NCBI GenBank assembly: GCA_040756875.1
Contig: JBFLYH010000004.1
Span: 1 to 20,437, forward strand
Reading direction: 5' to 3'
Length of the DNA stretch: 20,437 nucleotides
From: a candidate division FCPU426 bacterium
GTDB lineage: Bacteria > Oederibacteriota > JAAXVQ01 > JAUVAV01
Below the pieces are notes generated by a model. The model worked only from the letters and a program-made list of their open reading frames with translations, ran no database searches and was not told where the DNA came from. Made by a program: the position numbers and the translations under genes. Below, in pieces: positions 3,001 to 20,437 of this stretch (position 1 is the first letter of the stretch; each line of letters opens with the position of its first letter).

Positions 3001-6000
3001 ACCCTTCCAAAACCCGCGCCAGTATTTCCGCACGCAGCTGATCGCGTTCGGCCGCGGTTTTGGCCTGCATGAATTGCCGGCTCAATTCCGGGTGGCCTTC
3101 CACGATCCAATGCCAGGTGTCGAAAACGATCTGAATGGGGACCGTCGTGCCCGGATGCTTGGCCGCCCAGGCGTCCCGCCAGGCCCGCACTTCGGCCACG
3201 CTGGCCTGGAACATGCCCAAATCGCGCCCCTGGGTCAGTTCGAACACCGGCTCAATCAGCAGGCTGATGTTGTTGGCCACGGCCCGCTCGGCCACGGCCA
3301 TGAGCAGCTCCATGCGGCTCTTGCCGGTCAGGCCCTCTTCGCGGGCGAAGATCTCCAGGAACGGGCCAAGCAGCTCGGTATGGATGATCATCTTCGCTTC
3401 CTCGCCCTTTTCAAACTTGCGGTTGATCAGGGGATAGAGGAGCTCGATATGCGTGTCATACGACACGCCGTGCAGGGTCTGGATCTCCAGCTTTCCGCGC
3501 CGCGCCAGGCGTAAAGCCACTTCCGGCTGGTTGCCGTCGTCGTAGATCTCCGCGCGTTTCAAGCCCAGATACCGGCTGGCCACCCACAGGTAGCTGCGCA
3601 GGAAGGCCGGAGTCAGCCACCGCGCCAAGCGCAGAATCGTGGTGTTTTGCACGGAATGCAGGATCATGGTCGGACTCATGGAGATCCCGCCGCGCTGGAA
3701 AACGGTCCGCAGCATTTCGCGGTCCGAAGCGGACAGCGGGCCTTCTTCGTCAGTCTTGGGATAACGGACTTTCAACTGCGCCTGGCGGGTCAGGTGCCGG
3801 CCCAGCAGGACCAAACCGGCCACTGCCAGCAGGCCGGCGGCCAGACCCGTGGCGCCCACGGCAAAGGCCAGATACATCGCGGCAAAAGCCAGGGCTATGG
3901 CGCCCATGAGCATGACCGTGCCCGTGCTGGCGGCGCGCTGTTCGCCCAGAGCCGTGTCGCTCTGAATGGCCTGCACCGCAGCCTGCGGCGAAGCTTCCAG
4001 AACCGTCCGGTTGACAATGCCCGGATTGTCCGCCATAACCAGGCGGAAGATCTCGATTTCCGGAACCAGCCCATAGGGATCGATCACCCGGCCGCGCTGC
4101 AATTCCACGGGCAGTTTCATATCATCCAAGCGGGAGTTGCCGAAATAGAACCGCTGGACCATGCCGTTCATTTGCCGGTAGAAATCCGTCAGCAAGGGCA
4201 GCAGGCGGCCGCGAATTTCGGATTCCGTAAGCCCTTCGGCGATCCACTGCTGGATTTCAGGCCCGTACACATCCATGGCCAAATGCCAGGGATTCAGGGT
4301 GATGCCGATCGGCGCCTGGGCCGCGGTCTTGCCCGGATGGCGCGCCAGCCAGGCATCCTGCAGCTTGCGCACATGGGCGATCAGGTTGCGCATGTAATCC
4401 GCGCGCGAACGGCCGGTTTCATCCAGCAATTGTTCGCTCCGCCAGCCGATCGTGGTCTCCATCAGGATGACGACATTGGCTTCAGAAGCGCGGTCCAGCA
4501 GCGCCAGTTCCTCTTCGCGCACATCGGCTTGCAGGGCGCGGTCCGTGTGGAAGGCCAGGAAGTCGCGGCTGTCAGCCACGCCCGGGCCGCCTTGTTTCAT
4601 GGAGAAATAATCGTCCCAATTCGGCCAGTGAATATTGTAGGAAACCCGCCCGGGATGCTTCATACCCAAGACGCGGTCAATGCTCTCCACCACCGGGTCG
4701 CCCCAGGCATGGTGGTAGCCTGCCGGCTCGGGCAGCTCGCCCTTGGCGATCATGTCCAGCTGCTCAGGCGAGGCGAACACTTCCATGTTGCGGGAACCGG
4801 TGAAGTATTTGTAATAATCGAGGTAGGTGTGAATCATCCAATTCAACGGCTGGCCGTGGACGCGTTCGCCGACAAAGCCGAACGCCACCGTGGAGGCGCT
4901 GGAACGCCCCAGCATGAACTTGGCCAGGGCCGAATCAGACAGTTGCTGGTAATTGCCGGCTGCCAGGGCCGCGCGTTCCTGCGGCGTGTAATCCACCACC
5001 GGCTGGCGCATGGCCAAGCGCCCCAAGCCCGTGAACAGCACCGCCACCAGAAGGCCGGCCAGGAGCACGGCTTTCATCCGCCGGGTCATGAAAACCACGG
5101 TACCGATCACGACCCCGAGCGTTACGACCACCGCGGCCACTGGAATGGAGATCGCGCCGGTCAAGGCCAAGGCCACGCCAGCCACGATCAGGGACGCTCC
5201 GCCCAAGACAGCCGCCAACTCCGCACTGATGAACCCGGCCTCGCCCCTGCGGGTAGCAGTGGTCTCGCCCCGGTCCTTCGCCGCCTGGGCTTCGCTGTAG
5301 CTGTAGACAATGCGGCCCACTTCATCGATGCCTCTGACGATGCCGTGGTATCCATTGGCTTTTCCCTTCGGCTGCAATAAGTAGCCGATGATTTCCCGGA
5401 TGTATTTGGATGGCTTTTTAAGGTCGACGGCCAACGTATAGATGGTAACGACCTGACCTTGCTTCATTTTTTCATAGACTTGTCTAGCTGTCTGGATAAA
5501 ACCGCTTGTCCGGGTCAAAAGAAACGCCGGAACAAACTCAGGAGCCATGTCCAAAAAGAAACTGGCGTCACGGGTCTTGTCCCACTCATTGGTTTTTTGG
5601 TAAGGGACGGAAGCCAAGGCTGCCAGCAGGTTCGCTTGCCGCAGAGCCGCCGTGGCGATTCCGCTTACCTCCCTGTAGGTTTCCATCAAAATGTATTTAT
5701 TCCTGGCCACTTGCTCGACTGCCAAGGCCGCTTTCATTTCATCATCCGATATGACTTGTTGTTCCACCAATCCCCGGAAGACCCGCGCCAATTCCTGTTT
5801 GCGGTCGCCTGCCAACGAGAACAAGCTCGCCAGGTAAGCTATGGCCTCGCTCCGAATGAATAATTCCCGGTTGGCCAAAGCCTGGACAAATTCGTCACGC
5901 AAGGACTCCATGCCTTTTTCGTCCATGCGCGGCAAGGTCTCGGCCAAGGTCCGATAGTATTCCTGCCAGCCTGCCTTGCGTTTCGCGGTGTCCAGCACCT

Positions 6001-9000
6001 GATTCAGTTTTCCCAATGTCGTTTGGGGCGTTGTCTGGCGCTTGCTGGCATAAACCACGCTGTTATCCGGCAGCTTTCTGCGGGCAAAGCCCGCCATGCC
6101 ATCTGCAATCGCTTTTTCAGAAACCAAGTAGGCGGTTATTTTATAGAAGCTATGCCATGGGACAACCAGGAACAATCCCATCTGACTGATTTCCGACCTG
6201 ATGATCCTCGTCAATTCTTCTTCCGTCACTTCTCTTCCCGCTTCCATATGGGCATCCAAAAGGCGGGCAAGGATGTATCGGCCGGCTGCTTCCTCGTCTT
6301 GTTCTATTTGTTCCTGGGCAAGGTGCGTCAGAGATCCCAGCAGCATATGGATGGCGACATTCTGCGGCGACCCCAGCTTGCCAAAGCTCGGATCCATATA
6401 TCCCCGCATCATGCCCATGCCGGCGGCCAAACCTGGCAGCCAGTTAACCAGCCGGAAATTCCAAAAAGCATGCAGGGCAAAAGCCAGCACGGCACCTGCC
6501 ACCGCGCCCAACACCGCACCCAGGCCCGGCAGAACCACACCGCCGAGGACCAATCCTCCCAACACTAATGCCACCATGCCCAGTGCCAAGATCGACTGCT
6601 GGATAATATGCCGCATGGTCCGCGGCACTTCCCGGTAGGTTTGAATATTCCGGTCATAAATCAGTGCCGTTTTACCGTGCAACGCCGAAAATGAAGCGAC
6701 ATAGGCGCCGCCCAACAGTGCCAGCCCGGCAGCCAGGTTCTCCGGCGAAATCGAGAAAAACAAAGCCAGGCCCAGACCGATCACCGGCAGCATGCCCAGG
6801 TGTTCCTTGGCGATTTTCCCCCAGGTCGGCCGGACGGCTGCCGCTGCCGCCGGTACGGCCGCCTCGGCCGCCGGCGCCGCCTTGAGCCCGGCTTCCATCT
6901 GCCGCAGAATGCCGCCCTCCGCGATCCCCCGGTTCACGATCTCGTCCGCGCGCGCCTGCGTGTTCGCGTTCGAATAGATCCTCAGCTGCGGCGCGTTCCC
7001 CGACGGCCTCACGTGCGCCACGTCGTTGTTCGCAAAGCGCACACGCACCCCGTCCACGAAGTTCACGCTCACCACGCCCGCGAACCCGTCCGCTGCCGTG
7101 AAATACTGCTCCAGCTCCGCCTTCTTCCCCTCCAGCTCCACCCGCAGCGCGGCCCCGGGAAGCAGCTCCTTCACTTCCCCGTCGAACATCTCCACATACA
7201 CCGTCCCGTCCCGGAACATCACCTGCCGCACGTACGGGTCGCTCGGCTTCAGGTTCCTCAACAGCAGCTGGCTCGCCGCCACCGGGAAGTTGTCCAACAG
7301 CCCTGCCTGCGTCGAACGCTGCGGCAGCGCCGCGAAGTCCGCCGACACGCTCCCCGCCTTCGCGCCCGACAGCAAGGCCACCACGATCGGCAGGATCGCG
7401 TCACGCGTCGGCAACGCCGCCAGCTTCTTCCCGAACAGCTCCACCTCCGTCGCCGTCAGGAATCCGCCGTTCACTTCCCACGACACCACCACCGGCGACG
7501 CCCCCTTGTACTGCTTCTCCGCCGACGCTTTCATCACCTTCACCGCCGCGTCCATCTCCGCGATCACGTACGGCGACCCGATCTGCGTCTGCTGCAGCTT
7601 GATCCCCGCGCGCCCCAATTCCGTCGCCACCGAATCGTTCGCGCTGATCGGCACCGCCGCGAAATCCGCCCCCAGGTACTTCGCCACCACGATCCCCAGC
7701 TCGTCTCCCCGGTTGAAACGCCCGTTCTCGTCCACCACGAACGGACGGTCCGAATCCCCGTCCGTCGACACGATCGCGAACGGCCGGTGATCCTGCGCCA
7801 ATGCCCAGAAATTCTCCCGCGTCTCCTGCGTCACGTTCTCCGTGTCCTTCGGAACGAATTTCTCGCTCCGCTGCACCGCCACCACGTCCGCGCCCATTCC
7901 CTTCAATATCCGCACCAGCATGTCACGACCCACTGCCGAGTGCTGTTCCACCACGATCTTCTTTCCTGCCAGTGCGTCCTTCGGCAACACGTCCAGATAC
8001 CGCGCCACGAACTCCTCTTCCGCCGCGTTCGTCCCCGCCGGCAGCGCCACTGCCTTCCCACCCTTGAACATCCCGTTCTCCGCGAACAGGCTCTCGTCCG
8101 CCGAACGCGTCACTTCCTCCGAACGCGCCTTGGCCACTGCCGCCAGGATCCCCGTCTCGTCCGCCTTCAGCACCTCGCCCTGCGGCTTGTTGAACTTGAT
8201 CCCGTTCCGGTCGTCCGGAATGTGCGACCCCGTCACCATCACGCTCGCCAGCCCCCGCTGCATCGCGTAGTACATCACCGCCGGGCTCGGCACTTTCCCC
8301 ACGTTCTCCACTTCGCAGCCCGCGTCGCGGATCCCCTGCGCCACTGCCTCCATGATCCGGTCCGTCGAGCTCCTCAGGTCCCCGCCCACCACGATCCGGT
8401 CTCCCCGCTTGATCTGCCCCGTCGCGATCAGGTACTCCACGTACCCCTTCGTGTTGATGTACACTTCCGCGTCCGTCATGTCCGTGACCAGCCCGCGCAG
8501 ACCCGACGTCCCGAACGCCAGCGGCCGGTTCTTCGTCCAGGCGACGACCTGCGCCACGTTGCGGTTCAGCCAGGCCCGAACGCGCTGGGCCAGGCTGGTT
8601 ATCCCCAAGGTTGCGGCGACGGCCATCAAAAGCATCACCGTGCCGAAAAAGATCGTGGTGACCACGTCGCCGTACACCATCACCGGATCGGTCGAGCTCA
8701 CATTGGCATCGTAGCCCGCCATGAAAGCCAGACCCCAATAAACCATCGTCGTGACAAACGACAACACCGTGATGCCCGACATCACAGAAGCGGCGTTTTC
8801 CGCAATCGCGCGGACCGCAGCCAGGCGAGGCATTCCCGGCGCCAGCGCATTCCTGCGCTGCATAAGCGCCACGGTCAGGGTGCCGGCCAAGGCCAGCATC
8901 CCGGCAAACATCAGCACCGCGCCGCCCACAGCCGCTGCGCCGGCCAGGGTCATCGCTAAATAAGCGCCCGCGATCATCGCGCCCAATCCTGCCACGGACA

Positions 9001-12000
9001 GGCCCAGCGTGCTCATGAACCCCAGCGTCGCAAACCCCGCCTCGCCCCGGCGGCCGGCTTCCGGCCGCATCCGGTTCTGCTGCAGGATTTCAGCGACCGG
9101 CAGCTTGTACTTGCCTTCCCTGAAGAAATATTTCATCCGCGCCAGGTTCTTGCCCACCGTGCTGACCGCGAAGCGCTTCAGCGGCAGGGCCGCGATTTGC
9201 GCGCCGAGGGCTTCGGCCGCAGCCGGATCGCTTTCGGCCAGGCGCAGGGGCTCTTTGGCCTGGAAGTCTTCCATATATTGGTCCACCGTATCCATGCGGA
9301 TGCCTTCGCGCTTATAGAACGCGGCCATCTCTTCAGCCACCTGCGCTTCGGATTTTCCGGTCGCTACCGCCTCCAGCTTGGTCACCGTCTCCTTGAAGGC
9401 GTCGATGGCCGCTCCGTGCACTTCGCGGTCCGCATTGATCATGGCCACCAGTGCGCGCAGCAGCAGCCCGCCCAGGCCCACCCAAATCCGGTCCACCAGG
9501 CCGCGCAGCAAACCGTCCCGGGTCGCGCCCGGATAACCGAGGATGTAGTCCCGGCGCTGCCGGAAGACCCGGAAGAGCATCTCGCTGTTGTCCTGCGGCC
9601 TGACCGTGGATTCGGCTTCCGAAGCCAGCCAGGCGATCGGCGCTTCGACAATGGTTTCGCCCAGCAGTTTCAACTGCGTTAGCAGGGCGGTGTCAATGGC
9701 CATTTGCTGAGGGTGTTGCTTGAAGGTCGATTGCATGCGGCGAAGGACATCAGGCGTGAACATTTTGAATCCCCGCTGCGTGTCCGTGATCCGGCCGACG
9801 ATCGGAATCGTGGAGCGGCTCAGCCGAAGCAGGCCGTTGGCCAGCAGGTTGTACACCAGGCTCTTGATCTTGCGGCCTGTGGATTTCGAGGCCACCACTG
9901 AGTCCGAGGCCTCGCTGGTTCCCACTGCTGCATGCGCGCCCCGGCGGATAGGATCCACCAGTAGGCCGATTTGCATCAAATCCGTGGAAATGTCGGCATC
10001 TGTGTAGGAAACGTACGATTTCCGACCGGGGGTTTCGGCGGCCAGCTGCTCGCCCATCCACAGCATATACTGGATGGACCCGCCTTTGCGGCTGAGGCTC
10101 TCGTTGGCGTATTCCGCCAAAACCGGCGCACTGCCCGGCTGCGCAGCTTCGCGCCGGATGGCGTCCTGCACGCGCACCACCTTGAACCTGAGCTGAAGAT
10201 CGGCTTCCAGGCTCCAGGAACCGAAGCGGTCGCCGGTCGCCCGGCCGGACTGACCGAACAGGGCTTCCAGGAAGACCTGCATCATTTCGCCGGAATGGAT
10301 TTCGATGCCCTGGTCGGACTTGGGGCGCACGGTTTCGAACTCGTCGTCGCTGATGACGAATTCCACGCGCAGATTGGGGTTTCGCTGCAGCAGCTCCTGC
10401 ACCTGGGTGATCTTCATGCGCAGGAAGTCCTCGTTAAAGAGACGCATCTGTTCGCCGTATACTGCAAATGTAATGTAGATCGTGGTCGGTTCGGTCACCT
10501 GCAGCAGGCGCAGCATGGAATCCGCGTTTTTTGCCGCAGCCTTGAACCAGTAGGAAGAGGAAGCGGAGCGGGCCGCGCCGGCGATCGCGTCAAAACCCAC
10601 CGTTCCTTCGGCCGCATGATACAAAAGCGCACTCATCACCCGCTGGCCGTTCAATTCTGCCAGGTTTTTCTGGTCAAACAGGTCCGTGTCCGTCAAGTGC
10701 TCGCGCATGAAGGCCACAGCTTCCTGGTGTCCCTGTTTTTGTTTTTCCTCGAGGGTCTTGTAGAACCGGGTCACTTGAAGCTTGCGGGCCATGTCCGCAG
10801 CCAGGCTGGTTTTGGCCGCGTCGTAGGCGAACAAATTCAGGGCGGGTTCGGCCAGAATCTGGATGGCATTGACCGCCTCGGTTTCCGAAGCGGATGCCAG
10901 GGCTTGGGCCTGGATTTCATCCACGGTAGCGCGCGCGATCAAGGCCGCGGATGCGAGCATCTGTTCCCTTTTCACCCCGTCTGTGCTGGCATGTTCCAGG
11001 GTGAGGTCCTGGATAATATCGACAAACTGCAAGGCTGGATTCTGGTAAGCAGAGGCCATGAGGCTGGCCAATACGGCCATGGCTTCGCCTTCGCTGACGA
11101 ATTCACCGGCTGCCAGCGCCTGGTCAAAGGCTTCCATGAGCTGCGCGAACTCCGCGGGGTCCTTCATCTGCCGGACCTGCCAGCCCAGATCATTGGTCGC
11201 CGCCTTTTTCGCGGCCTGCATGAACACCTGCTTGTCCACTTTTTCTTTCTTGCGTTTGGCCTCGGCCACCAATGCATCATAGTGGCCTGAGGTCAGGTTC
11301 CTGAACCGGATCGCGCCTTCCGTACCCGGCGTTTCCGGTTCCGCAGGCGTGCGCCCCAGCAGGCGGGTGAGCGCGCGACCGATATAAAAACGCAGAGGGT
11401 GGGATTGGTTGAACGCCCAGGCTTGCAGGACTTGGAAGACCGCGTCAATCAGGATCTGCGCGATGGAGCGGATGGGCAGGATCAGCATCCCAACAGCCAT
11501 GCTCATGGGAATGACGTTTTGCAGGACGAAATTGTAAGCAATGGCAATGGGCGCCTTGGCAATGAAGAAATCCATGAACTTCTTGCTTTCGTTCTTGAAG
11601 CTGAACGACTTGAGGGATTTTGCGAAAAAGGTGGTGATGATCCAATACTCGAACATCATCACCACCGTGCCCGCGCCTAAAACCGTGCGCACCCATTTGA
11701 CCGCCCAATCCATGCCTTGCAGGGCCTCGGTCCACCCCAGGGCCTGCGCCAGGCCCGAGGCGCCCCAGCCCGCAGCCGGCGCGGCCCAGTCGATGAAGTT
11801 GAAGATCAATTGGGTCTGGATGCCAAAGGTCAGGCCGATGAGCGTGGCCATGACCGATTGTTTCAATTTATATTCCGGCCGGTCGGATATTTTCTGGCCG
11901 ATGGCGTCCGTAATGCCCGCAATGGCGCCGCCGGTCAGGGCGGACAGGGCGTACGGTTCGATAAGGCGCCAGAATCCGATCAGGTTTTCGGTGCTGAACG

Positions 12001-15000
12001 TTTCCGTATTGCCGAGCAACAGCGCCGCACCCACGGCAATGGCCAGGGTGGCGCCCACGCTGATGATGGCCAGCATGCGGCGGGAGGCGAAGTTTCCTTG
12101 TTTGACCGCCTCGGCCGCGGTCTGCGGCCCGGCGGCAGGGGCTTCCTCGGCTTCGTATTTTTTCGGCTGCGCGGCTGCCATAATGAGCATACTGCCGACA
12201 GGCACTGTCTCCGAAGACCCTTCCACGCTTTGGCTCCACTGGTAGAGCCGCGCGAAATCACCGCTATGCAAAATAATTCGGATGGTATTAAAAAGTCTGA
12301 TTTTGTCGCTGTATTCCGATTTTTCCACCACGGATGCGGTTTTCGGCAACGCGGCGCCATGCTCTACGATGTCGAGACAGACGGCTTCGAAGTGGGCGGC
12401 TGCCTTGGCGGTCAGCAGGCCGTTGGCCAGCGCGCTGCGCACCCAGGAAATGCCGGTGAGCGCCTGATGCTGCAGCTTGGTCTGGCCCGGGGCAAAATAG
12501 CCGCCCACCACGGGATTGAGGCGGTCCACCACCTGATCGAAATCGTTCTTGGCTTGGGTGAAATCCCGCATGCCAATCATAATGGGCTTAAAACGGGGCA
12601 CCTGGGCCAACTCTGGAACCGGCGCCAGGTTGATGTCCATTTCCCGCAGAAGCTGGTTTTTAACCTCGTCTTTTTCCGCAAAAGTGCCTTTCTGGCTGGA
12701 GGCTTCCAGGATGCGGTTGATCAGGTCCAGGTTCAGATCATTGGCCGAGATGTTGGTCAAAGCCAGCATGGCTTCGAAAGAGGTCACGTCCTGGACCATG
12801 AGGTTGATCTTGATGCCCAGCGCCTTGGTTTCGCAGGTAATGGGCAGGATGGCCATCATGAACCGTCCCACCAATTCGTCGCGGTAAATCCACTCGGCCT
12901 GGCCGATGGCGCGGATGCGCCCTGCCACCTGCCGTTCCAGTTGCACGCGCCGTTCCAAAACAGCCTGCGGATCGTCCTGATGGGTTTGCGCGAACTGCAG
13001 CCAGGCATGGTAAGCCTGCTTGATCTCCCGGTCGCGATTGACTGCATCCATGATCGGATCGCGGCCAAGGTGGTTGGCGTTGAAATCACGCTGCAGGATC
13101 ACCATGGCCACGTTTTGGGGGACCGTGAGGGTCTCGCCGCGGCTGTTCGTGAAGGGCACTTGTTTGGTGTAGTTGCTTTTTTCCACAAAACGCGCGCCGC
13201 CCGCCACTTCCAGCAGGTGGCCGCCTGCCTTCTGGGAATAGTGGAACAAGGATTGCTTTTTGTCTTCGAATTCAATCTGCAGGCCCTGCACCCGGTCTTC
13301 CACCTGGGTTTGGAATGCACGGATGGCTTCGAAAATAAGGTCGCGCTGGGCGGTTTTGTCCTTTTCCGCGGAAGCGCGCTGCACCAACTCCATGGCCGCG
13401 TCGCGGCCGGCTTCCAGGGCGCGCTCTTCGGGGGCGAGCTCCAGCACGGTCGAATCCGCGAAAAAGACGCGTCCTTCTCCCACTTTAATCACTCTTTTGC
13501 CGTTGATGTGGACAACCCGGTTGGCTTCCCATTCGCGTTTGATGTCATCCAGCCGGTTGTAGAAAACCACTTCCTGCGGCGTGACCAGAGGCACGAACGG
13601 CGACTGGCCGGTGCGGATCAAGTACGACATGGCACTGGTAGTGAAGGGATCCCCCAGGTCGTCGCCCTGGATGTGGTCCCAAATTTTCCCCTGTTCGATG
13701 ATGCTGGCCAGGCGTTCCGCGTTGCTGACAATGGCCCGGACCAGGAAGCCGTGTCCGCCCACATCCACCACGGATTCGACGAAGTGGCCGGCTTCATCCA
13801 CAAAATGCACCACCACCTGGGTGAGGATGTCCTTGCCGCTGCCCAGCATGCGCTCGATGGCCGTGACCGTGGGCATGCCGCCGATCCATACGGCTCCGGG
13901 CGCGCGCGACGCCAGGAGCGGAATGGTCAGGCCCACATAATGGTAGCCGCCGATTTGGGCCAGCTCGTAGGTGCCGGCCCCCCGGCTTTCCCAGTAAGCC
14001 TTGAAAGCTTCCACCTTTTCCGGCAGCAGCTTGAAAACCGGGGTGATCATTTTGTTTTCCTGGAAAAAGTCCTCCAAAATGCGGCTGCCTTGCCCGGCAA
14101 TGCCGATTTCAGACACTGCCTGGTGTTCGGTCACCTGGACGCCCTGGGCCAGAAACTGCCGGCTCAAATCCGGTTTCTGGGTCACCTCCAGGAAATTGGC
14201 TGACACCAGATCGCCTTCGGCCAGTTGTCCGTCCGAACTGACCACAGTGCCCCGGTTGTTGACTTCGGTCCGGATCTGGGAGCGGGCTTGGGGGCGGGCG
14301 AAGAAGTCCATCAGCAGTTCCGGATAACCCATTTTCAATTTAGTGAAGTAAATGAGCAATTGCTGAGCCTGCCGGCGAAGATCGCGCGATACGGCCATCG
14401 TGGGCAGATAGGGCGCCATCTGCAAGAACATTTTGACGCGTTCCATGGCCGTGGTGAAGGTGTCGTAATTCAGGGCTTGTTTGCTGGCCAGGATGGCCAG
14501 GGCGTCCAGATAGGCGGTGAATTGTTCCTCGCTCAGGCTGCCGGCCGTGGCCAGAGTCAGGAGATTGGTCTGCGCGATTGCCTCCAGCGCGGTTTGGATC
14601 TGCTCCGGAGTGTACGCCACTTCAGCCACACCCGGCAGTTCGGTAATAATGCGCAGGCCCTGGGGGACCTGTTTGATGACCTGGCCGGCAGTCACGTCCT
14701 TCACGCCCAGGAAAGCCCGCAGACCGGGATTGCCCAGGAGCACTTCGCTGTCCAGCAGGTTCTCCAGGGGCAGGCGCTCGTGGTTGACGCCGTCAACCGT
14801 CACCCAGCGCGAACCGAGCTGGAAGTAGGTCTTGCCTTCCACTTCCAGAAGGCTGCCCTGCAGGGTGCGGCCTGCCAGGCTGAGGGTGAACGGCCGCTGT
14901 TTTTTCACGAATTGGGACATGGCCTGGCCCTGGACCGGTTCAGGCTGGCCCATGGCAATGCGAATGCGCACGCGCTTGCCGTCGACGGTCGCCTGGACGG

Positions 15001-18000
15001 TATCGCGGTTTTGCCATATGGATACTGCCACGACCACTGCCAGCACTGCTGCCCCTACGCCGATCAGGACGCCGGACAGCAAGGTGACCGTGCCGGCCGT
15101 AAAAATCATGCTGATGCCGATGGCGGCAGTGACCAGCCCGGCAATGACCGAGGCGGTTTCCACGGTCGCAAACCCCGCCTGGCCCCGACGGGCGGTTTGC
15201 AGACGGCGGTCATGGACTTCGATAATCCTCCCTATGGCCCGTTTGATTTCCGAGTCGCTGGATGTTGCCGCCAGTCTCTCCAAATCCGGCCGCAACACGC
15301 CGTTGATTTCCCCCATCGGCAGCAACTTCGTTTCCATTTCTGCCGCTATGCGTTCCAGGCTCTTCAGCATCGTTTGCCGTATCTTACCGCCTATTTCCAA
15401 GCTGGTGCGGAAAACCCGCAAAAACAAATCGCCCTCCGTCAGGAATTTGCCTTGGGAGTTGCCTATTTCTTCCCAAATCTGCTCAATCATGCCTGTCACC
15501 CAAGTTTGCCGCCGCCCAGCCGATGTTCGAGCAATAAACAAGAGGTCGTCCAGGAGATCGATCTTATTCGAAAGCCTTTGCTGACTCAGAAACATCTCAG
15601 CTTGAATCCGGGCATTAGCGGCGCCGTTTTGGACAAACTGTTCCACATTTGTACGGAACTCCGCTTCACTTCCCCGCTCCCGGTATGGAGGTGTTTCCAG
15701 ACGGTTGTCATGGATCTTCAAAACCCGCGCAGCCGACCGGCGGACTTCCGGATCATTCGCCATGGCCGCCAGCCATTCCAAATCAGCCCGCAACACGCCA
15801 TTGATCTCTCCCATTGATATTATTTTAACGTCGATTTCGGCTGCAAGGCGTTCCAGGTTCGCCAATACCGCCAGTTGCGTCCTGCGGTCCATGCTCATGC
15901 TGGCGCGGAAGGCCGTTAGAATTTTCTCGTTCTTTATAAAATACCGGCCTTTCAAATCCGCCGCTTTTTCCCAGGCCTGTATGACCATCCCGGCAAACCA
16001 CGCCTGCTGGGTTTTGCTCGTGGTTTGAGCTAAAAATGACAGGTCGTCGACCATGTCCATCTTGCCGGGAACATCCTGCTGGGCGTAATAAGCCTCCGCG
16101 GAGGTTTTCGCACCCGTTTCGGACGTTTCGGCATATCGCTGGACATCCGCCAAAAATTGTTTCTCTCTTTCATACATAACTTGGTAGCATTTGATTACCA
16201 TGTCATCCGTCGCATCGCGCTGCAAGGAGTTGATAACCAACGCAGGCAACGCTAACATGAGCAATCCGACGATCAGAATTGAATTGCGCGTTTTTTGATC
16301 TTTTGCAGACACCACCCTCATTACAATTCGCAGCGCAATGACAGTCACCACCAGGGCGCCGCCGATTAAAAGAATTGTTCCTGTCAACAACCCGGTTGCC
16401 CACAAAGTGTAGCCACCGATGCCCAAAGCCGAGAGAATGGCCAGTAAGCGTGCCGCGCTTATTTGGATGAACCCCGCCTGGCCCCCACGGGCGGTCGTGG
16501 TCTCGCCCCGGTCCTTCGCCGCCTGGGCTTCGCTGTAACTGTAGACGACACGGCCCGCTTCATCGCTGCTTTTAACGATACCAAGAAATCCCTTGGCTTT
16601 GGCTTTCGACTGCAATAAATACTCCAAAACCGTTTCAACATAGTCGGACGATTTTTTCAGCTCCTCTGACACGGAGTATTCAGTGACTGCCTGTCCTTGT
16701 TTCATTTTTTCATAGATTTGACTGGCCATCCGTACAAATTTGCCCGTGCGTGATAAAATGAACATCGGAATAAACACTATGTCTAGTCCATCAAGAACGC
16801 CTTCCTCGTTGATCACTGTATACCCTTCAGGGTTGGAATAGGAGGCGGAAGATAAGCTGCCCAGCAAGTTTGTTTGCCTCATGACGGCAGAGGCTGTGTC
16901 ACGCACCTCGCGGTAGGTTTCCAGCAAAACATGCCGATTCCGTGGGATTTGTTCGACTGCCAACGCGGCCTTCAATTCGTCTTCCGACAGGGCTCGGGTT
17001 TCCACCAAACCACGGAAGAGGTTGACCAATTCCTGCCTGCGGTCGCCTGCCAGCGCAAACAAACTCGATAAATAAGCCAAGGCCTCATCCCGGATGGTCA
17101 TTTCCCGATTAGCCAGGGCCAGGGCAAACTCGTCCCGCAGAGATTCCAGGTTTTTCGCGTCCATTCCCGGCAAGGCCTGCGCCAGCGCCTGATAATGCTT
17201 CTGCCAACCCGTGCGGCGCGTTTCAGTATCCAGCACTTGATTCAGCTTCCCGGGCATGGTTTGCGGCGCCGCCTGGCGCTTGCTGGTGTAAATCACAGTT
17301 TGATCCGGAAGGGTTTTACGTTCAAAGCCTGCCATCCCTGTTTTCGCCGCTTTATTTGAAATTAAAAGCTTGGCAACTTCCCCGTAATGATTTTCCGGAA
17401 TGAGGGAGGATAAATCCATTTGCCGGGTTTCGGATTCAATAGCCGCGAACAAGGTTTTTTCCGTGATTTGTTCACCCGCCGCCAAGTGAGCATCCAACAA
17501 ACCGGCCACGAGAAACCGGGCAAAGATTCTCGCCCGGTGCAACTTCGCTTCCTCTGCCGCTTCCTCCGCCATTTCCCCTACTCGATCCATCATAGACATG
17601 GTGACATGCTGGATCGATCCCATTTCTCTGCCGTAAACCGCGGGATTCAAGTATGTTTTTGTCGGATCCCAATACGGGCGCAGAGTTCCCGCGGCGATAT
17701 CAGGCCACCAGCGCATCAGGCGGAAATTCCATCCCGCATGCAGAAATAAAGCCAGCACAGACCCGGCGAGAGCGCCCACGACCGCACCCACGCCCGGTAA
17801 AAGCATTCCTCCCAGGACCAGCCCACCCAAGGCCAGGGTCGCCATTCCCAGTGCCAAGATCGACTGCTGAATAATATGCCGCCTGGTCCGCGGCACTTCC
17901 CGGTATTTTTGTTCTTTCCGGTCATAAACGAGCACTGTTTTGCCGTGTAAGGCCGCGAACGTGACGGCATACATTCCGCCTATAGCCGCTACACCTTCAA

Positions 18001-20437
18001 CCAGATATTCCGGCGACGCCCAATAGAATATCGCTAAACCCAAGCCGATGACTGGCAACAATGTCAGGTTTTCCTTGAGAATCTTTCCCCAGGTCGGCCG
18101 GACGGCTGCCGCTGCCGCCGGTACGGCCGCCTCGGCCGCCGGCGCCGCCTTGAGCCCGGCTTCCATCTGCCGCAGAATGCCGCCCTCCGCGATCCCCCGG
18201 TTCACGATCTCGTCCGCGCGCGCCTGCGTGTTCGCGTTCGAATAGATCCTCAGCTGCGGCGCGTTCCCCGACGGCCTCACGTGCGCCACGTCGTTGTTCG
18301 CAAAGCGCACACGCACCCCGTCCACGAAGTTCACGCTCACCACGCCCGCGAACCCGTCCGCTGCCGTGAAATACTGCTCCAGCTCCGCCTTCTTCCCCTC
18401 CAGCTCCACCCGCAGCGCGGCCCCGGGAAGCAGCTCCTTCACTTCCCCGTCGAACATCTCCACATACACCGTCCCGTCCCGGAACATCACCTGCCGCACG
18501 TACGGGTCGCTCGGCTTCAGGTTCCTCAACAGCAGCTGGCTCGCCGCCACCGGGAAGTTGTCCAACAGCCCTGCCTGCGTCGAACGCTGCGGCAGCGCCG
18601 CGAAGTCCGCCGACACGCTCCCCGCCTTCGCGCCCGACAGCAAGGCCACCACGATCGGCAGGATCGCGTCACGCGTCGGCAACGCCGCCAGCTTCTTCCC
18701 GAACAGCTCCACCTCCGTCGCCGTCAGGAATCCGCCGTTCACTTCCCACGACACCACCACCGGCGACGCCCCCTTGTACTGCTTCTCCGCCGACGCTTTC
18801 ATCACCTTCACCGCCGCGTCCATCTCCGCGATCACGTACGGCGACCCGATCTGCGTCTGCTGCAGCTTGATCCCCGCGCGCCCCAATTCCGTCGCCACCG
18901 AATCGTTCGCGCTGATCGGCACCGCCGCGAAATCCGCCCCCAGGTACTTCGCCACCACGATCCCCAGCTCGTCTCCCCGGTTGAAACGCCCGTTCTCGTC
19001 CACCACGAACGGACGGTCCGAATCCCCGTCCGTCGACACGATCGCGAACGGCCGGTGATCCTGCGCCAATGCCCAGAAATTCTCCCGCGTCTCCTGCGTC
19101 ACGTTCTCCGTGTCCTTCGGAACGAATTTCTCGCTCCGCTGCACCGCCACCACGTCCGCGCCCATTCCCTTCAATATCCGCACCAGCATGTCACGACCCA
19201 CTGCCGAGTGCTGTTCCACCACGATCTTCTTTCCTGCCAGTGCGTCCTTCGGCAACACGTCCAGATACCGCGCCACGAACTCCTCTTCCGCCGCGTTCGT
19301 CCCCGCCGGCAGCGCCACTGCCTTCCCACCCTTGAACATCCCGTTCTCCGCGAACAGGCTCTCGTCCGCCGAACGCGTCACTTCCTCCGAACGCGCCTTG
19401 GCCACTGCCGCCAGGATCCCCGTCTCGTCCGCCTTCAGCACCTCGCCCTGCGGCTTGTTGAACTTGATCCCGTTCCGGTCGTCCGGAATGTGCGACCCCG
19501 TCACCATCACGCTCGCCAGCCCCCGCTGCATCGCGTAGTACATCACCGCCGGGCTCGGCACTTTCCCCACGTTCTCCACTTCGCAGCCCGCGTCGCGGAT
19601 CCCCTGCGCCACTGCCTCCATGATCCGGTCCGTCGAGCTCCTCAGGTCCCCGCCCACCACGATCCGGTCTCCCCGCTTGATCTGCCCCGTCGCGATCAGG
19701 TACTCCACGTACCCCTTCGTGTTGATGTACACTTCCGCGTCCGTCATGTCCGTGACCAGCCCGCGCAGACCCGACGTCCCGAACGCCAGCGGCCGGTTCT
19801 TCGTCCAGGCGACGACCTGCGCCACGTTGCGGTTCAGCCAGGCCCGAACGCGCTGGGCCAGGCTGGTTATCCCCAAGGTTGCGGCGACGGCCATCAAAAG
19901 CATCACCGTGCCGAAAAAGATCGTGGTGACCACGTCGCCGTACACCATCACCGGATCGGTCGAGCTCACATTGGCATCGTAGCCCGCCATGAAAGCCAGA
20001 CCCCAATAAACCATCGTCGTGACAAACGACAACACCGTGATGCCCGACATCACAGAAGCGGCGTTTTCCGCAATCGCGCGGACCGCAGCCAGGCGAGGCA
20101 TTCCCGGCGCCAGCGCATTCCTGCGCTGCATAAGCGCCACGGTCAGGGTGCCGGCCAAGGCCAGCATCCCGGCAAACATCAGCACCGCGCCGCCCACAGC
20201 CGCTGCGCCGGCCAGGGTCATCGCTAAATAAGCGCCCGCGATCATCGCGCCCAACCCTGCCACGGACAGGCCCAGCGTGCTCATGAACCCCAGCGTCGCA
20301 AACCCCGCCTCGCCCCGTCCGGCCAGGGGCCTGGGCTGCTCGGGTTCGACCACCACGCGGTCCCCCGCCTGCCGCACCCGCACGCCCTTGGTCCCGAACA
20401 CCGCCACCACTCCGTTGTCCGTCGTCACCACCGTGCG
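2..20437 (-). CDS. Giant multidomain membrane protein, partial at both ends (>=6,812 aa in window), with sugar-nucleotide and glycosylation enzyme domains separated by TM bundles
   Basis: Manual translation of the frame starting at 20437 runs RTVVTTDNGVVA... to ...KAEGEKAQTA with no stop seen. None of the minus-strand ORFs in the track lies in this frame, as expected if it never closes. The longest plus-strand ORFs (995, 2780, 3647, 6800, 9971, 11717, 14225, 18281) share its codon register, i.e. they are antisense shadows. Recognisable enzyme motifs fall in this frame throughout. Confidence 0.96.
2810..3680 (-). other. Domain: xylose-isomerase-like/AP-endonuclease-2 TIM barrel (sugar phosphate isomerase/epimerase family)
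   Basis: AEIY, QTLHG, MIIH, AVANNISLLIEPV, IQIVFDTWH, IGWLHITN, SHG, VTFE: the typical E, DxxH, HxxD-like and E metal-site pattern. Confidence 0.7.
3995..4900 (-). other. Domain: xylose-isomerase-like/AP-endonuclease-2 TIM barrel, degenerate copy
   Basis: YNIHWP, LAFH, VVILMET, PIGITLNPWH, RFYFGN, TVLE in barrel order. Shares DAWxAxHPG...PIxIxx[D/N]xWH with the downstream barrel. Confidence 0.55.
5219..5251 (-). other. Internal class III signal-peptide-like motif RRGEAG|FISAE followed by TM helices
   Basis: Basic residues, G(-1)|F(+1), E(+5), then LAAVLGGASLIVAGVALAL. Confidence 0.6.
5231..6818. repeat. Diverged continuation of the duplicated cassette, copy A (CPBP-like TMs, helical region, wHTH-like units)
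   Basis: Protein aligns with 16469-18086, e.g. YREVPRTxRHIIQQSILALGM, GKLNQVLDT, ESLRDEF, KAALAVEQ, YEKMKQGQ, VYSYSEAQAAKDRGETT, with many substitutions and a net 30-nt indel. Confidence 0.92.
6431..6812 (-). other. Domain: CPBP/CAAX-protease-like intramembrane segment, degenerate (copy A)
   Basis: FSALH (6677-6691) and HAFWN (6458-6472) in TM helices. The EExxxR motif is absent (IAKEHL). Confidence 0.45.
6819..9049. repeat. 2,231-bp near-identical direct repeat, copy A (4-TM bundle + PMM + Ala/Pro linker)
   Basis: Matches 18087-20317 at an in-frame offset of 11,268 bp. The duplicated ORF-track translations are identical. One synonymous mismatch noticed (8987 t vs 20255 c). Confidence 0.97.
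6881..8524 (-). other. Domain: phosphomannomutase, ManB-type alpha-D-phosphohexomutase (copy A)
   Basis: Same sequence as copy B: FGTSGLRG, TGSHIP (Ser codon 8225-8227), DGDSDR (7745-7762), WEVNGG, RPSGNAP. Confidence 0.95.
9020..9052 (-). other. Internal class III signal-peptide-like motif RRGEAG|FATLG followed by TM helices
   Basis: Same motif without E+5. It coincides with the repeat boundary at 9049. Confidence 0.55.
9545..10490 (-). other. Domain: GT2 glycosyltransferase, dolichyl/polyprenyl-phosphate beta-glucosyltransferase-like
   Basis: ITFAVYGEQMRL, EFVISDDE, RKGGSIQY, YTDADISTD (DxD at 9992-10000), ITDTQRGFKMF (cf. DTQCGFKLF), AIDTALL, IVEAPIAW. Confidence 0.85.
11400..11945 (-). 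other. Domain: Mpv17/PMP22-like multi-TM segment
   Basis: ALTGGAIAGITDAIGQKI resembles Mpv17/PMP22 TM1 (lT.g.l...gD.iaQ.i). It is followed by IGLTFG...IFNFID, further helices and YNFVLQNVIP. Confidence 0.45.
12500..14130 (-). other. Domain: divergent UDPGP-family (UDP-glucose/UDP-GlcNAc pyrophosphorylase-like) nucleotidyltransferase
   Basis: Family motifs in the expected order: IAGQGSRI (cf. AGGxGTRL), GGHGFL (PxGHG), HIQGDDLG (NxDNLG), KAGGHL...FVEK (KGG...llE), FNANHL (FNTNN), LP...GIKINLMVQD, RDFTQAKN (RFxPVK). Confidence 0.65.
15158..15190 (-). other. Internal class III signal-peptide-like motif RRGQAG|FATVE followed by TM helices
   Basis: G|F with E(+5), then TASVIAGLVTAAIGISMIFTAG. 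Confidence 0.6.
15200..16170 (-). repeat. Two tandem diverged ~166-aa alpha-helical (HEAT/ARM-like) repeats
   Basis: KMDMVDDLSFLA...LERLAAEIDVKIISMGEINGVLRADLEWLAAMANDPEVRRSAARVL vs KIDLLDDLLFIA...LERIAAEMETKLLPMGEINGVLRPDLERLAATSSDSEIKRAIGRII. The MGEINGVLR blocks are 498 nt apart. Confidence 0.85.
16457..16489 (-). other. Internal class III signal-peptide-like motif RGGQAG|FIQIS followed by TM helices
   Basis: Same motif without E+5. It marks the end of homology of cassette copy B. Confidence 0.55.
16469..18086. repeat. Diverged continuation of the duplicated cassette, copy B
   Basis: Homologous to 5231-6818 (same conserved blocks). Confidence 0.92.
17702..18080 (-). other. Domain: CPBP/CAAX-protease-like intramembrane segment, degenerate (copy B)
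   Basis: Hydrophobic helices with FAALH (FxxxH, 17945-17959) and HAGWN (HxxxN, 17726-17740). The EExxxR motif is absent (ILKENL). Confidence 0.45.
18087..20317. repeat. 2,231-bp near-identical direct repeat, copy B
   Basis: Matches 6819-9049. Identity breaks at 20318/9050 and at 18086/6818. Confidence 0.97.
18149..19792 (-). other. Domain: phosphomannomutase, ManB-type alpha-D-phosphohexomutase (copy B)
   Basis: FGTSGLRG N-terminus; GDLRSS; phosphoserine loop TGSHIP (Ser codon 19493-19495); metal loop DGDSDR (19013-19030); sugar loop WEVNGG; phosphate loop RPSGNAPQLR. Confidence 0.95.
20288..20320 (-). other. Internal class III signal-peptide-like motif GRGEAG|FATLG followed by TM helices
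   Basis: Same motif. It coincides with the repeat boundary at 20317. Confidence 0.55.
20342..20437 (-). other. Domain fragment: probable C-terminal beta region of a mannose-1-phosphate guanylyltransferase (ManC-like), truncated by the window edge
   Basis: RTVVTTDNGVVAVFGTKGVRVRQAGDRVVVEP resembles the ManC C-terminal pattern (lVatiGvedlvvVdtgDavLV) and precedes a ManB cassette. Only 32 aa are visible. Confidence 0.45.

Follow-up and report, generated by a model that had tools for sequence, protein, structure and literature searches.

Class III signals, as carried by type IV prepilins, pseudopilins and Flp pilins and cut by prepilin peptidases of the PilD, TadV/CpaA and FlaK/PibD types, consist of a basic stretch ending in an invariant Gly, a Phe at +1 and an immediately following hydrophobic helix. 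According to the portion of PMC4471445 available here, prepilin leaders comprise 6-26 residues and are removed at the membrane's cytoplasmic side, with Gly-1 "absolutely critical" for processing and Glu5 dispensable. The same portion describes a pilin-type signal on non-filament proteins, the sugar-binding proteins of the Sulfolobus bindosome (PMC4471445). Very long open reading frames (ORFs) with many membrane helices and embedded sugar-metabolism domains, including PGM/PMM, have been reported as the "Archaeovorin" giants of Omnitrophota, whose genomes also hold pilus/T2SS-like and class III signal genes (10.1101/2023.11.21.568195, in the part available). Whether a bacterial giant works as a single chain or undergoes cutting, and at which points, is posed there as an open question; the route proposed in that part is autoproteolysis by C39/S8 domains and not a prepilin peptidase (West-Roberts et al. 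2023, 10.1101/2023.11.21.568195).

The window analyzed here has 20,437 bp and is the entire contig C4 of a seven-contig genome of a candidate division FCPU426 bacterium. It consists of a single minus-strand ORF of 6812 codons with zero stops and both ends open. The ORF resembles the Archaeovorin giants in length, membrane helices, embedded PGM/PMM domains and the pilus/T2SS-like and class III signal genes elsewhere in its genome. It differs in that Pfam finds no SecA_DEAD, C39 or S8 domain in the window, the N-terminal part of the gene lying outside it. Five internal copies of a prepilin-like motif are best explained as the end of the leader in a lineage-specific element some 60-70 residues long. 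With class III signals these copies share the basic stretch ending in an invariant Gly, Phe+1, the immediate hydrophobic helix and the charge pattern of a cytoplasmic leader; Glu+5 is seen in 8/18 sites of the element. They differ from them in lying hundreds to thousands of residues inside the chain, several per chain, and in preceding a hairpin with cytoplasmic domains rather than a single span with a periplasmic pilin head; moreover, the PF07963 and NCBIfam models miss them, and their cleavage is a prediction. As in the bindosome, the signal would sit on enzymatic or binding rather than filament proteins, whereas the bindosome signal is, as far as that description goes, N-terminal and single, on an exported archaeal protein (PMC4471445).

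Five internal sites in a giant open reading frame

The translated ORF was searched with the regular expression [RG][RG]G[EQ]AGF. Matches start at residues 40, 1317, 1750, 3796 and 5063, which puts the Phe of the putative cut site at residues 46, 1323, 1756, 3802 and 5069; the ORF itself lacks its N-terminal part (Table 1). A preliminary description had listed five copies with Phe codons at 20300, 16469, 15170, 9032 and 5231, each followed by a hydrophobic helix and two of them with Glu at +5. The positions agree exactly with the ends of the Phe codons, the mean Kyte-Doolittle hydropathy of residues +1 to +20 is 1.42-1.88 at every site, and both FISAE and FATVE were found. The core G[EQ]AGF occurs 35 times in the six-frame ORFs of at least 60 aa of this genome (4.13 M residues); a hydrophobic stretch follows it in only the five copies of the C4 ORF, the next best scoring 0.71. 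Behind site 2 the hydrophobic run gives way to the basic patch MRVVSAKDQKTRNS and behind site 5 to TRRMK, in both cases before a third hydrophobic segment.

Table 1 Features of the window, positions on the contig; a slash marks the putative cut position
Feature	Position	Strand	Basis
Giant ORF, internal-to-C-terminal piece of a giant multi-pass membrane protein	2..20437	-	ORF reading
Site 1, GRGEAG/F, residues 40-46	20300..20320	-	Regular expression
Hydrophobic block behind site 1, ~4 helices, residues 47-195	19853..20299	-	Hydropathy and positive-inside rule; alignment with G003 and G014 homologues
PGM/PMM domains I-IV, copy 1, residues 218-746	18200..19786	-	Pfam: I, II and IV above cut-off, III below
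Repeat copy A, 2231 nt, near-exact, starts at RGEAGF	18087..20317	-	
Site 2, RGGQAG/F, residues 1317-1323	16469..16489	-	Regular expression
Hydrophobic run behind site 2, ~49 residues, interpreted as hairpin	16322..16468	-	
Site 3, RRGQAG/F, Glu+5 (FATVE), residues 1750-1756	15170..15190	-	Regular expression
Hydrophobic run behind site 3, ~48 residues, interpreted as hairpin	15014..15169	-	
Domain X, conserved 976-residue module, residues 1811-2786	12080..15007	-	Conservation
Site 4, RRGEAG/F, residues 3796-3802; DNA as site 1 from RGEAGF on	9032..9052	-	
Repeat copy B (site 4, four-helix block, PMM copy 2)	6819..9049	-	
PGM/PMM domains I-IV, copy 2, residues 3974-4502	6932..8518	-	Pfam
Site 5, RRGEAG/F, Glu+5 (FISAE), residues 5063-5069	5231..5251	-	Regular expression
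Hydrophobic run after site 5, read as hairpin	5087..5230	-	
Conserved C-terminal region of the giant-protein family, residues ~6174-6812	2..1918	-	

Both PGM/PMM copies have the four-domain PGM_PMM architecture, with PF02878 (E 7e-25), PF02879 and PF00408 above their cut-offs and PF02880 just below, and Pfam detects nothing beyond it in the 6812 residues of the window. Domain X has a homologue in G003 that comes after a phosphomannomutase (PMM), a site and a hairpin. AlphaFold2 on a 3-row alignment of domain X reached a mean pLDDT of 48.8, too poor for a fold search. Residues ~3050-3795 and ~5144-5912 gave no phmmer match among PDB sequences, and the best ESM Atlas scores for the 342-residue region between sites 2 and 3 were 0.80, below a usable level.

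The five copies are not independent events, since sites 1 and 4 are the same sequence inside a near-exact direct repeat (nt 6819-9049 differ from nt 18087-20317 at a single position) and the blocks that hold sites 2 and 5 are paralogous, with 50-55% amino acid identity. Site 3 shows weak similarity to the region of site 5 (25% identity, E 9e-5). The conserved C-terminal region is 79% identical to its counterpart on contig C6 and 26-27% identical to the giants on C1 and C2, and a C-terminal tail type that is missing from C4 is present on contig C7.

An element at module boundaries of giant proteins

The element begins with a flexible basic linker and continues through G-[E/Q]-[A/G/R]-G/F into an uninterrupted, Gly/Ala-rich hydrophobic run of 45-52 residues, which we read as a two-helix membrane hairpin, and a basic patch. 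Giant membrane proteins of this bacterial order carry it repeatedly, at the boundaries between modules: 18 distinct internal copies were found in the giant ORFs of four related genomes and in two metagenome proteins. Diverged copies are present in P0003 and P0005, both from metagenomes, and in G001, G003 and G014, where giant ORFs carry them. Twelve internal sites from 5 ORFs were aligned. Gly-1 is present in 12/12, and likewise in all further sites found; among the twelve, Glu or Gln at -3 also reaches 12/12, Phe+1 11/12 and Arg at -6 9/12, while the flanks differ. This conservation speaks for cleavage. Since a Gly at +19 is as conserved as Phe+1 (11/12), the Gly conservation in the element may be structural. 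Glu+5 occurs in 8/18 distinct internal sites versus 1/129 background sites (Fisher p = 8e-8), and in two of the four distinct sites of the window (p = 0.002). This enrichment, too, speaks for cleavage.

The element is sporadic, with 7 matches in this genome as against 87 hydrophobic-cluster starts in its giant paralogues, and the profile scan of this genome finds it absent from giant ORFs of 12,551, 12,450 and 10,037 codons. At the junction that corresponds to site 3 the homologue P0002 is without the motif, and other junctions in C4, C6 and P0002 carry a conserved pre-helix motif of their own, e.g. HPFRAxxGY. A homologue search with residues 1150-1900 returned the protein itself and, beyond it, no more than a single distant giant, P0002. 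A profile search of the whole library (1.84 billion representatives) yielded only four matches at E<=0.001, among them the C3 giant of this genome and a spurious repeat protein, so the element is rare; no stand-alone gene starting with the element was found in that search.

Both ends of the element carry the charge signature of the cytoplasmic side, as evidenced by upstream and post-hairpin flanks that are net positive or neutral at 12/13 sites, in accordance with the positive-inside rule, a pattern that counts in favor of cleavage. The preliminary description had cautioned that three hydrophobic helices between sites 2 and 3 were hard to reconcile with both sites facing the cytoplasm. Hydropathy gives the same count, three segments after site 2 and also after site 5, and if all of them span the membrane then site 3 would lie outside, which argues against cleavage. 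On the other hand, element sites directly follow a phosphomannomutase in G003 and P0003, and the one in G003 is the orthologue of site 3. Phosphomannomutase being cytoplasmic by function, the caveat on sidedness is weakened even though the three-segment count stands.

Likeness to prepilin N-termini

Statistically, no other membrane-helix start in these genomes resembles the element as closely as the type IV prepilin N-terminus does. A first profile, built from 4 internal sites and searched in this genome and 40 relatives (41 genomes), found two true pilins, ARRGQAG/FTLVE in G040 and RRRGETG/FTLIE in G017, in favor of cleavage. A second profile was built from 12 internal sites and searched in all 99 species-level genomes of the phylum in the collection, giving 8 non-training matches at E<=0.001. 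Five of these belong to giant ORFs with 3660 codons or more, and the other three are pilin N-termini also matched by PF07963; thus, beyond sites in giant ORFs, the internal-site profile retrieves only true pilin N-termini. The 36 pilins of the phylum score a median of 11.65 bits with the 12-site profile, and the pilin of this genome 13.1 bits, versus a median of 0.4 and a maximum of 8.3 bits for 129 other sites in this genome with a basic stretch, G/F and a hydrophobic segment (Mann-Whitney p = 1e-17). This separation likewise speaks for cleavage. Finally, the PROSITE N-methylation pattern PS00409 matches once in the 4.48 M six-frame residues of this genome, at an internal site ~8000 residues into the C1 giant ORF whose G001 orthologue matches too; this also favors cleavage.

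Curated models behave differently. Pfam and NCBIfam, including the PF07963 scoring that the preliminary description had proposed as a check, give no match at E<=10 for four 52-residue site segments, and PF07963 run over the whole genome at E<=1 detects the pilin and, weakly, Flp, but nothing else. With a profile made from 30 pilin N-termini, the pilin and Flp are again all that is found in this genome, the C4 sites being outside its top 40. The sites have Gly-1 and about 21 mainly hydrophobic residues after the cut position, but they lack the N-terminal location and the leader of ~6-26 residues (leader length from PMC4471445, in the part available) of class III signals.

The only PF07963 pilin of this genome starts with MRSCRRPEAG/FTFIEL and is encoded in a PilT-pilin-PilM-PilN-PilO-...-PilQ operon. 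From -6 to +1 its leader is near-identical to the internal sites (RRPEAG/F versus RRGEAG/F), which favors cleavage, as does the presence of a single A24 peptidase, of CpaA/TadV type, 162-175 residues long and with both catalytic Asp residues invariant. Each of the element-carrying genomes G000, G001, G003 and G014 has one A24 peptidase. Strict co-variation of pilin leaders and internal sites was looked for and not found; in G003 the pilin leader reads QEKG/F while the internal sites read EAG/F, QRG/S and EGG/F, a difference at -2 that counts against cleavage. Tad genes and an entire T4aP operon are present in the genome; no pilus genes occur in the window, and in the assembly none of the pilus loci neighbors a giant ORF that bears the element.

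Possible cleavage or anchorage

The best reading of these data, which we hold tentatively, is that a prepilin peptidase cuts internally at the element. The element would insert with its N-terminal side in the cytoplasm and fasten sugar-nucleotide enzymes of the cytoplasm, for example both phosphomannomutase copies, to the membrane. The single A24 aspartyl peptidase of CpaA/TadV type, which must already process the pilin and Flp of this organism, would act at the cytoplasmic face and cut behind the invariant Gly. The giant translation product would thereby be split into a number of modules that are separate, have their anchor at the N-terminus and start with Phe. Such a role of the A24 peptidase as a polyprotein maturase, whose cytoplasmic-side cuts release membrane-anchored Phe-hairpin enzyme modules in stoichiometric amounts, is a rather doubtful proposal. 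The preliminary description had suggested such a polyprotein from the motif. Its likeness to class III signals stands, and the profiles, the pilin of the genome and Glu+5 make it stronger than was visible from the window; the remainder is tempered by the curated models, which miss the sites, and by the few membrane junctions that carry the element. Against cleavage count the missing Pfam and NCBIfam matches, the sporadic distribution, the motif-free P0002 and a two-helix hairpin that returns to the cytoplasm instead of a single-span pilin helix. Nor did we find a precedent in which thousands of residues lie upstream of the cut position of an A24 substrate. Internal translation starts were considered as another source of separate modules and rejected, since a Met 12 residues upstream occurs at site 4 alone and such starts are therefore not general.

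Nearly level with cleavage stands the possibility that the protein stays in one piece and that the element is an uncleaved two-helix anchor hairpin tethering cytoplasmic enzyme modules. The hairpin might descend from a pilin N-terminus, G[EQ]AGF would be a structural juxtamembrane cap, and the recurrence would stem from duplication and shuffling of modules. In accordance with this, recurrence in the window is largely duplication, a hairpin with both ends predicted to be cytoplasmic is read at 13/13 sites examined, a second Gly within the helix is equally conserved, standard pilin models fail on the sites, and the element is sporadic among junctions, other types of which have their own pre-helix motif. 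Simple anchorage, however, leaves the pilin-leader likeness at -6 to +1 without a reason, and equally the invariant Glu/Gln at -3 and the charged Glu+5. Moreover, because the only A24 peptidase must accept RRPEAG/F, an exposed RRGEAG/F at a cytoplasmic helix start would be expected to be cut unless it is shielded, given the specificity described in the available part of PMC4471445.

The likeness could also serve recognition without cutting, or without cutting alone, if the element were a pilin-like handle that docks the giant or its modules to the T4P or Tad platform via PilM/N/O or TadB/C and couples the enzymes to a filament or secretion machine. The T4aP operon and Tad genes of the genome fit such docking, and T2SS/Tad-like loci and class III signal genes are reported beside Omnitrophota giant genes in the available parts of two sources (10.1101/2023.11.21.568195; 10.64898/2026.06.07.730766). 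Glu5, enriched here at +5, matters for filament assembly and not for cutting according to the available part of PMC4471445. We nevertheless regard docking as improbable, as a hairpin with large cytoplasmic domains cannot be extracted into a filament as a pilin is, and the pilus genes lie neither in the window nor next to element-bearing giant ORFs. Chance or an assembly artefact, with repeats from a mis-assembled contig around a meaningless motif, is very unlikely: the contig is short, ends inside an ORF and contains a 2.2-kb near-exact repeat, but the flanks of the two repeat copies differ on both sides and diverged elements occur in the giant ORFs of G001, G003 and G014 and in P0003 and P0005. 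In 3/5 copies an RR pair precedes a moderately hydrophobic helix rich in Gly and Ala, which would also suit an internal twin-arginine (Tat) signal directing insertion of a late helix, as in membrane proteins that use both Sec and Tat. This reading is effectively refuted by the absence of TatC from a genome rated 100% complete, the control search being positive in 11/14 genomes; in addition, the RR pair is not conserved (GRG and RGG variants), and an acidic residue stands where Tat motifs have hydrophobic ones.

For the question of whether and where bacterial giants are cut, the element supplies candidate cut sites at residue level together with a named candidate protease. Should the cutting not be real, the element would nonetheless be a defined and portable module, a membrane hairpin whose likeness to pilins stays unexplained. 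If the cutting is real, the substrate range of prepilin peptidases would extend from short N-terminal leaders to internal sites, and bacteria would have a polyprotein strategy for assembling membrane enzymes.

A giant open reading frame and its five motif copies

The minus strand of the window, an entire contig (C4, 20,437 bp) of genome G000, is a single reading frame of 6812 codons without a stop and with both ends open. The genome (3.22 Mb, 7 contigs, completeness rating 100%) has 41 frames that run for 1500 codons or more without a stop, the longest of 12,551. About 11 of its giant genes have a 550-residue N-terminal domain in common, which starts with a conserved 'ISLLVTLVFVFPYLTWAFE'-type signal-anchor, and several of these close with a conserved tail, '...HRRR.FR..AQAA'. 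Contigs C4, C5, C6 and C7 are fragments of giant genes, C7 comprising the tail of one and the start of the next. As all four small contigs, like one end of C2 at least, fall within giant genes, we attribute the assembly gaps to repeated giant-gene modules; the breaks of C4 and C6 are at homologous positions in a 79%-identical C-terminal region. Pfam detects two phosphoglucomutase/phosphomannomutase (PMM) copies in the window and nothing else. The remainder of the frame matched no Pfam family, and phmmer found no PDB sequence relative of residues ~3050-3795 and ~5144-5912. The one AlphaFold model attempted, of the 976-residue module after site 3, was too poor in quality for use.

The preliminary description reported five copies of [RG][RG]G[EQ]AGF, each followed by a hydrophobic helix and two with Glu at +5 (Gly is -1, Phe +1, a bar marks the putative cut). 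All of this was borne out: the five copies, here sites 1 to 5, lie where it placed them, the stretch after every one is strongly hydrophobic, and two carry the Glu. G[EQ]AGF is found 35 times in the complete set of six-frame ORFs of the genome, and only these five copies precede a hydrophobic stretch. A direct repeat of 2231 nt with a single mismatch (at 8987) comprises a motif site, a four-helix block and a PMM, and since it starts exactly at 'RGEAGF', the sequences of sites 1 and 4 are one and the same. The repeat points to recent gene conversion, or to duplication of the module, with a junction at the motif-coding DNA. The blocks containing sites 2 and 5 are 50-55% identical, and site 3 is nearly without a similar counterpart in the frame. 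The five copies are thus not independent and represent three to four independent contexts.

Positions of the motif sites and related features in the window and in genomes G000 and G020
Feature	Position	Residues or remarks
Site 1	window, Phe codon 20300	residue 40
Site 2	window, Phe codon 16469	residue 1317
Site 3	window, Phe codon 15170	residue 1750
Site 4	window, Phe codon 9032	residue 3796
Site 5	window, Phe codon 5231	residue 5063
Direct repeat	window 6819-9049 and 18087-20317	
'HPFRAxxGY' motif	window ~2447-2554	residues ~5962-5997; also contig C6 and P0002
Giant genes with shared N-terminal domain (~11)	e.g. C1:760691-, C2:-97805, C3:-415210, C7:2568-	
A24 peptidase and Flp pilin	C2:160667-161421	
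Complete T4aP operon (PilT, pilin, PilM/N/O, PilQ)	C2:524823-534138	separate from A24 gene
L006, signal-anchor match	G020:C168:1313-1450	394-codon ORF

Anatomy and spread of the element

Beyond the gene, profiles built solely from internal sites recovered similar sites in other giant ORFs, but these head a minority of hydrophobic clusters. A 4-site profile found further internal sites in giant ORFs of contig C3 and of the related genomes G003 and G014, and a similar one in a giant ORF of contig C1 was recognised by eye. In 12 internal sites aligned in register, Gly-1 and Glu/Gln at -3 are present in all, Phe+1 in 11, Arg at -6 in 9 and a second conserved Gly at +19 in 11. Across the 99 phylum genomes in our collection, a 12-site profile added a second giant ORF of G014 and two (5843 and 8820 codons) of G001, a genome of the same genus. 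G001 gave no match to the four distinct C4 sites; either that assembly missed the C4-type gene or the gene is strain-specific. Among 1.84 billion representative proteins the profile found two further carriers, P0003 and P0005, both pieces of giant proteins, the other matches being G000's own C3 giant and one spurious repeat protein. No gene starting with the element was found in either collection. Since carriers are so few in both, the element is rare and confined to giant proteins of this lineage. The motif observation stands and now covers a family of sites.

At each of the 13 sites examined, an uninterrupted hydrophobic run (45-52 residues in 11, longer in two) and then a basic patch come after Gly-Phe, and the net charge of the 15 upstream residues is positive or neutral in 12. 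We read the run and its flanking charges as a putative two-helix hairpin with both ends cytoplasmic. At the head of other hydrophobic clusters in these giant proteins stands a second recurrent pre-helix motif, 'HPFRAxxGY', which in P0002, a homologous giant protein, precedes a conserved '...AWS.G.E...HEQF' region.

Likeness to pilins and the resident peptidase

The proposed prepilin-like character is partly supported: the resemblance takes in the end of the leader, positions +1 and +5 and part of the helix, but not the canonical FTLIELMIVVAIIG helix, and Pfam and NCBIfam models gave no match at E<=10 to any of the four sites. The sole PF07963 protein of G000 sits in a PilT-pilin-PilM-PilN-PilO-...-PilQ operon, and its N-terminus, MRSCRRPEAG|FTFIEL, has RR-x-EAG|F in common with the internal sites. 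Although no pilin was among the training sequences, the 4-site profile matched two, one with ARRGQAG|FTLVE, and the eight non-training matches of the 12-site profile in the 99 genomes were three true pilin N-termini and five sites in giant ORFs. With the latter profile, 36 phylum pilins score a median of 11.65 bits and G000's own 13.1, against a median of 0.4 and a maximum of 8.3 for 129 other basic, Gly-Phe, hydrophobic-tail sites of the genome. Of 18 distinct internal sites, 8 have Glu+5, versus 1 of the 129; the test is partly circular, as sites with Glu+5 went into the profiles and there are orthologues among the 18. Restricted to the window's four distinct sites, it gives p = 0.002. The PROSITE methylation-site pattern matches once in six-frame G000, and this match is in the C1 giant ORF, at its internal site. 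Conversely, a profile of 30 phylum pilin N-termini matched only the pilin and Flp in G000, the C4 sites being absent from its 40 best matches. The likeness is thus real but partial. The 4-site search also matched an unrelated ORF of ordinary size, L006, whose motif-like signal anchor near the start, 'SRRGEAG|KLRASAVFLLLALV', has Lys in place of Phe after Gly. A Tat-type signal was ruled out since G000 lacks TatC.

The expected peptidase and pilus genes are present, on contig C2 rather than in the window. The one A24 (prepilin) peptidase is of the short CpaA/TadV type, adjoins an Flp pilin gene (KNEKG|QGLVEY) and has both catalytic Asp residues, invariant among 22 homologues. The T4aP operon has no PilD-type peptidase of its own. 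As the sole A24 enzyme of the genome, the CpaA/TadV-type peptidase must serve the RRPEAG|F pilin as well. A single A24 peptidase is likewise present in G001, in G003 and in G014, a co-occurrence that does not discriminate because pilins are common in the phylum. The review PMC4471445 places cleavage by prepilin peptidase at the cytoplasmic face of the membrane and describes Gly-1 as absolutely critical and Glu5 as dispensable for it.

Membrane sidedness and fate of the giant chain

The preliminary description counted three helices between sites 2 and 3, hard to reconcile with both facing the cytoplasm. Hydropathy indeed gives three. In G003, however, site 3 has an orthologue that directly follows a PMM domain and precedes the same 976-residue module, so site 3 should by homology face the cytoplasm. 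In P0003, too, an element site directly follows PMM; PMM substrates are cytoplasmic sugar phosphates. The C4-specific insertion has probably been assigned a wrong number of helices, and helix predictions in giant proteins are described as unreliable in passages of West-Roberts et al. (bioRxiv 10.1101/2023.11.21.568195).

We tentatively propose that the hairpins would insert with both ends inside, tethering the enzymes to the membrane, and that the A24 peptidase would cut after the invariant Gly, so that the giant chain would mature into separate membrane-anchored modules. Nearly as probable, in our view, is a hairpin that stays uncut, with the motif as a structural cap that may derive from the N-terminus of a captured pilin. 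In its favour, conserved motifs of their own, such as HPFRA, precede the helices of other junction families; the element stands at only 7 of 87 hydrophobic-cluster starts in the giant paralogues of G000; P0002 has no such motif at its counterpart of the site 3 junction; and so long an upstream chain is without precedent among known A24 substrates.

Compared with a class III signal, the element is alike in sequence logic and differs in its internal, repeated position, in matching no curated model and in the hairpin and cytoplasmic domains downstream. The giant multi-pass proteins described for Omnitrophota in two preprints (10.1101/2023.11.21.568195, 10.64898/2026.06.07.730766) resemble the C4 protein, including an embedded PGM/PMM, and their genomes, like G000, carry pilus or T2SS genes. 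Genes with class III signals are also reported close to the Omnitrophota giants. The SecA_DEAD, C39 and S8 domains of those giants are absent from the 6812 residues of the window ORF by Pfam. The searched passages of these preprints contain neither 'prepilin' nor 'polyprotein', and we found no description of internal prepilin-type sites in a polyprotein in the literature. Overall, the module boundaries of these giant proteins, which carry sugar-nucleotide enzymes, show membrane hairpins that begin with a recurrent and conserved element resembling a pilin leader.
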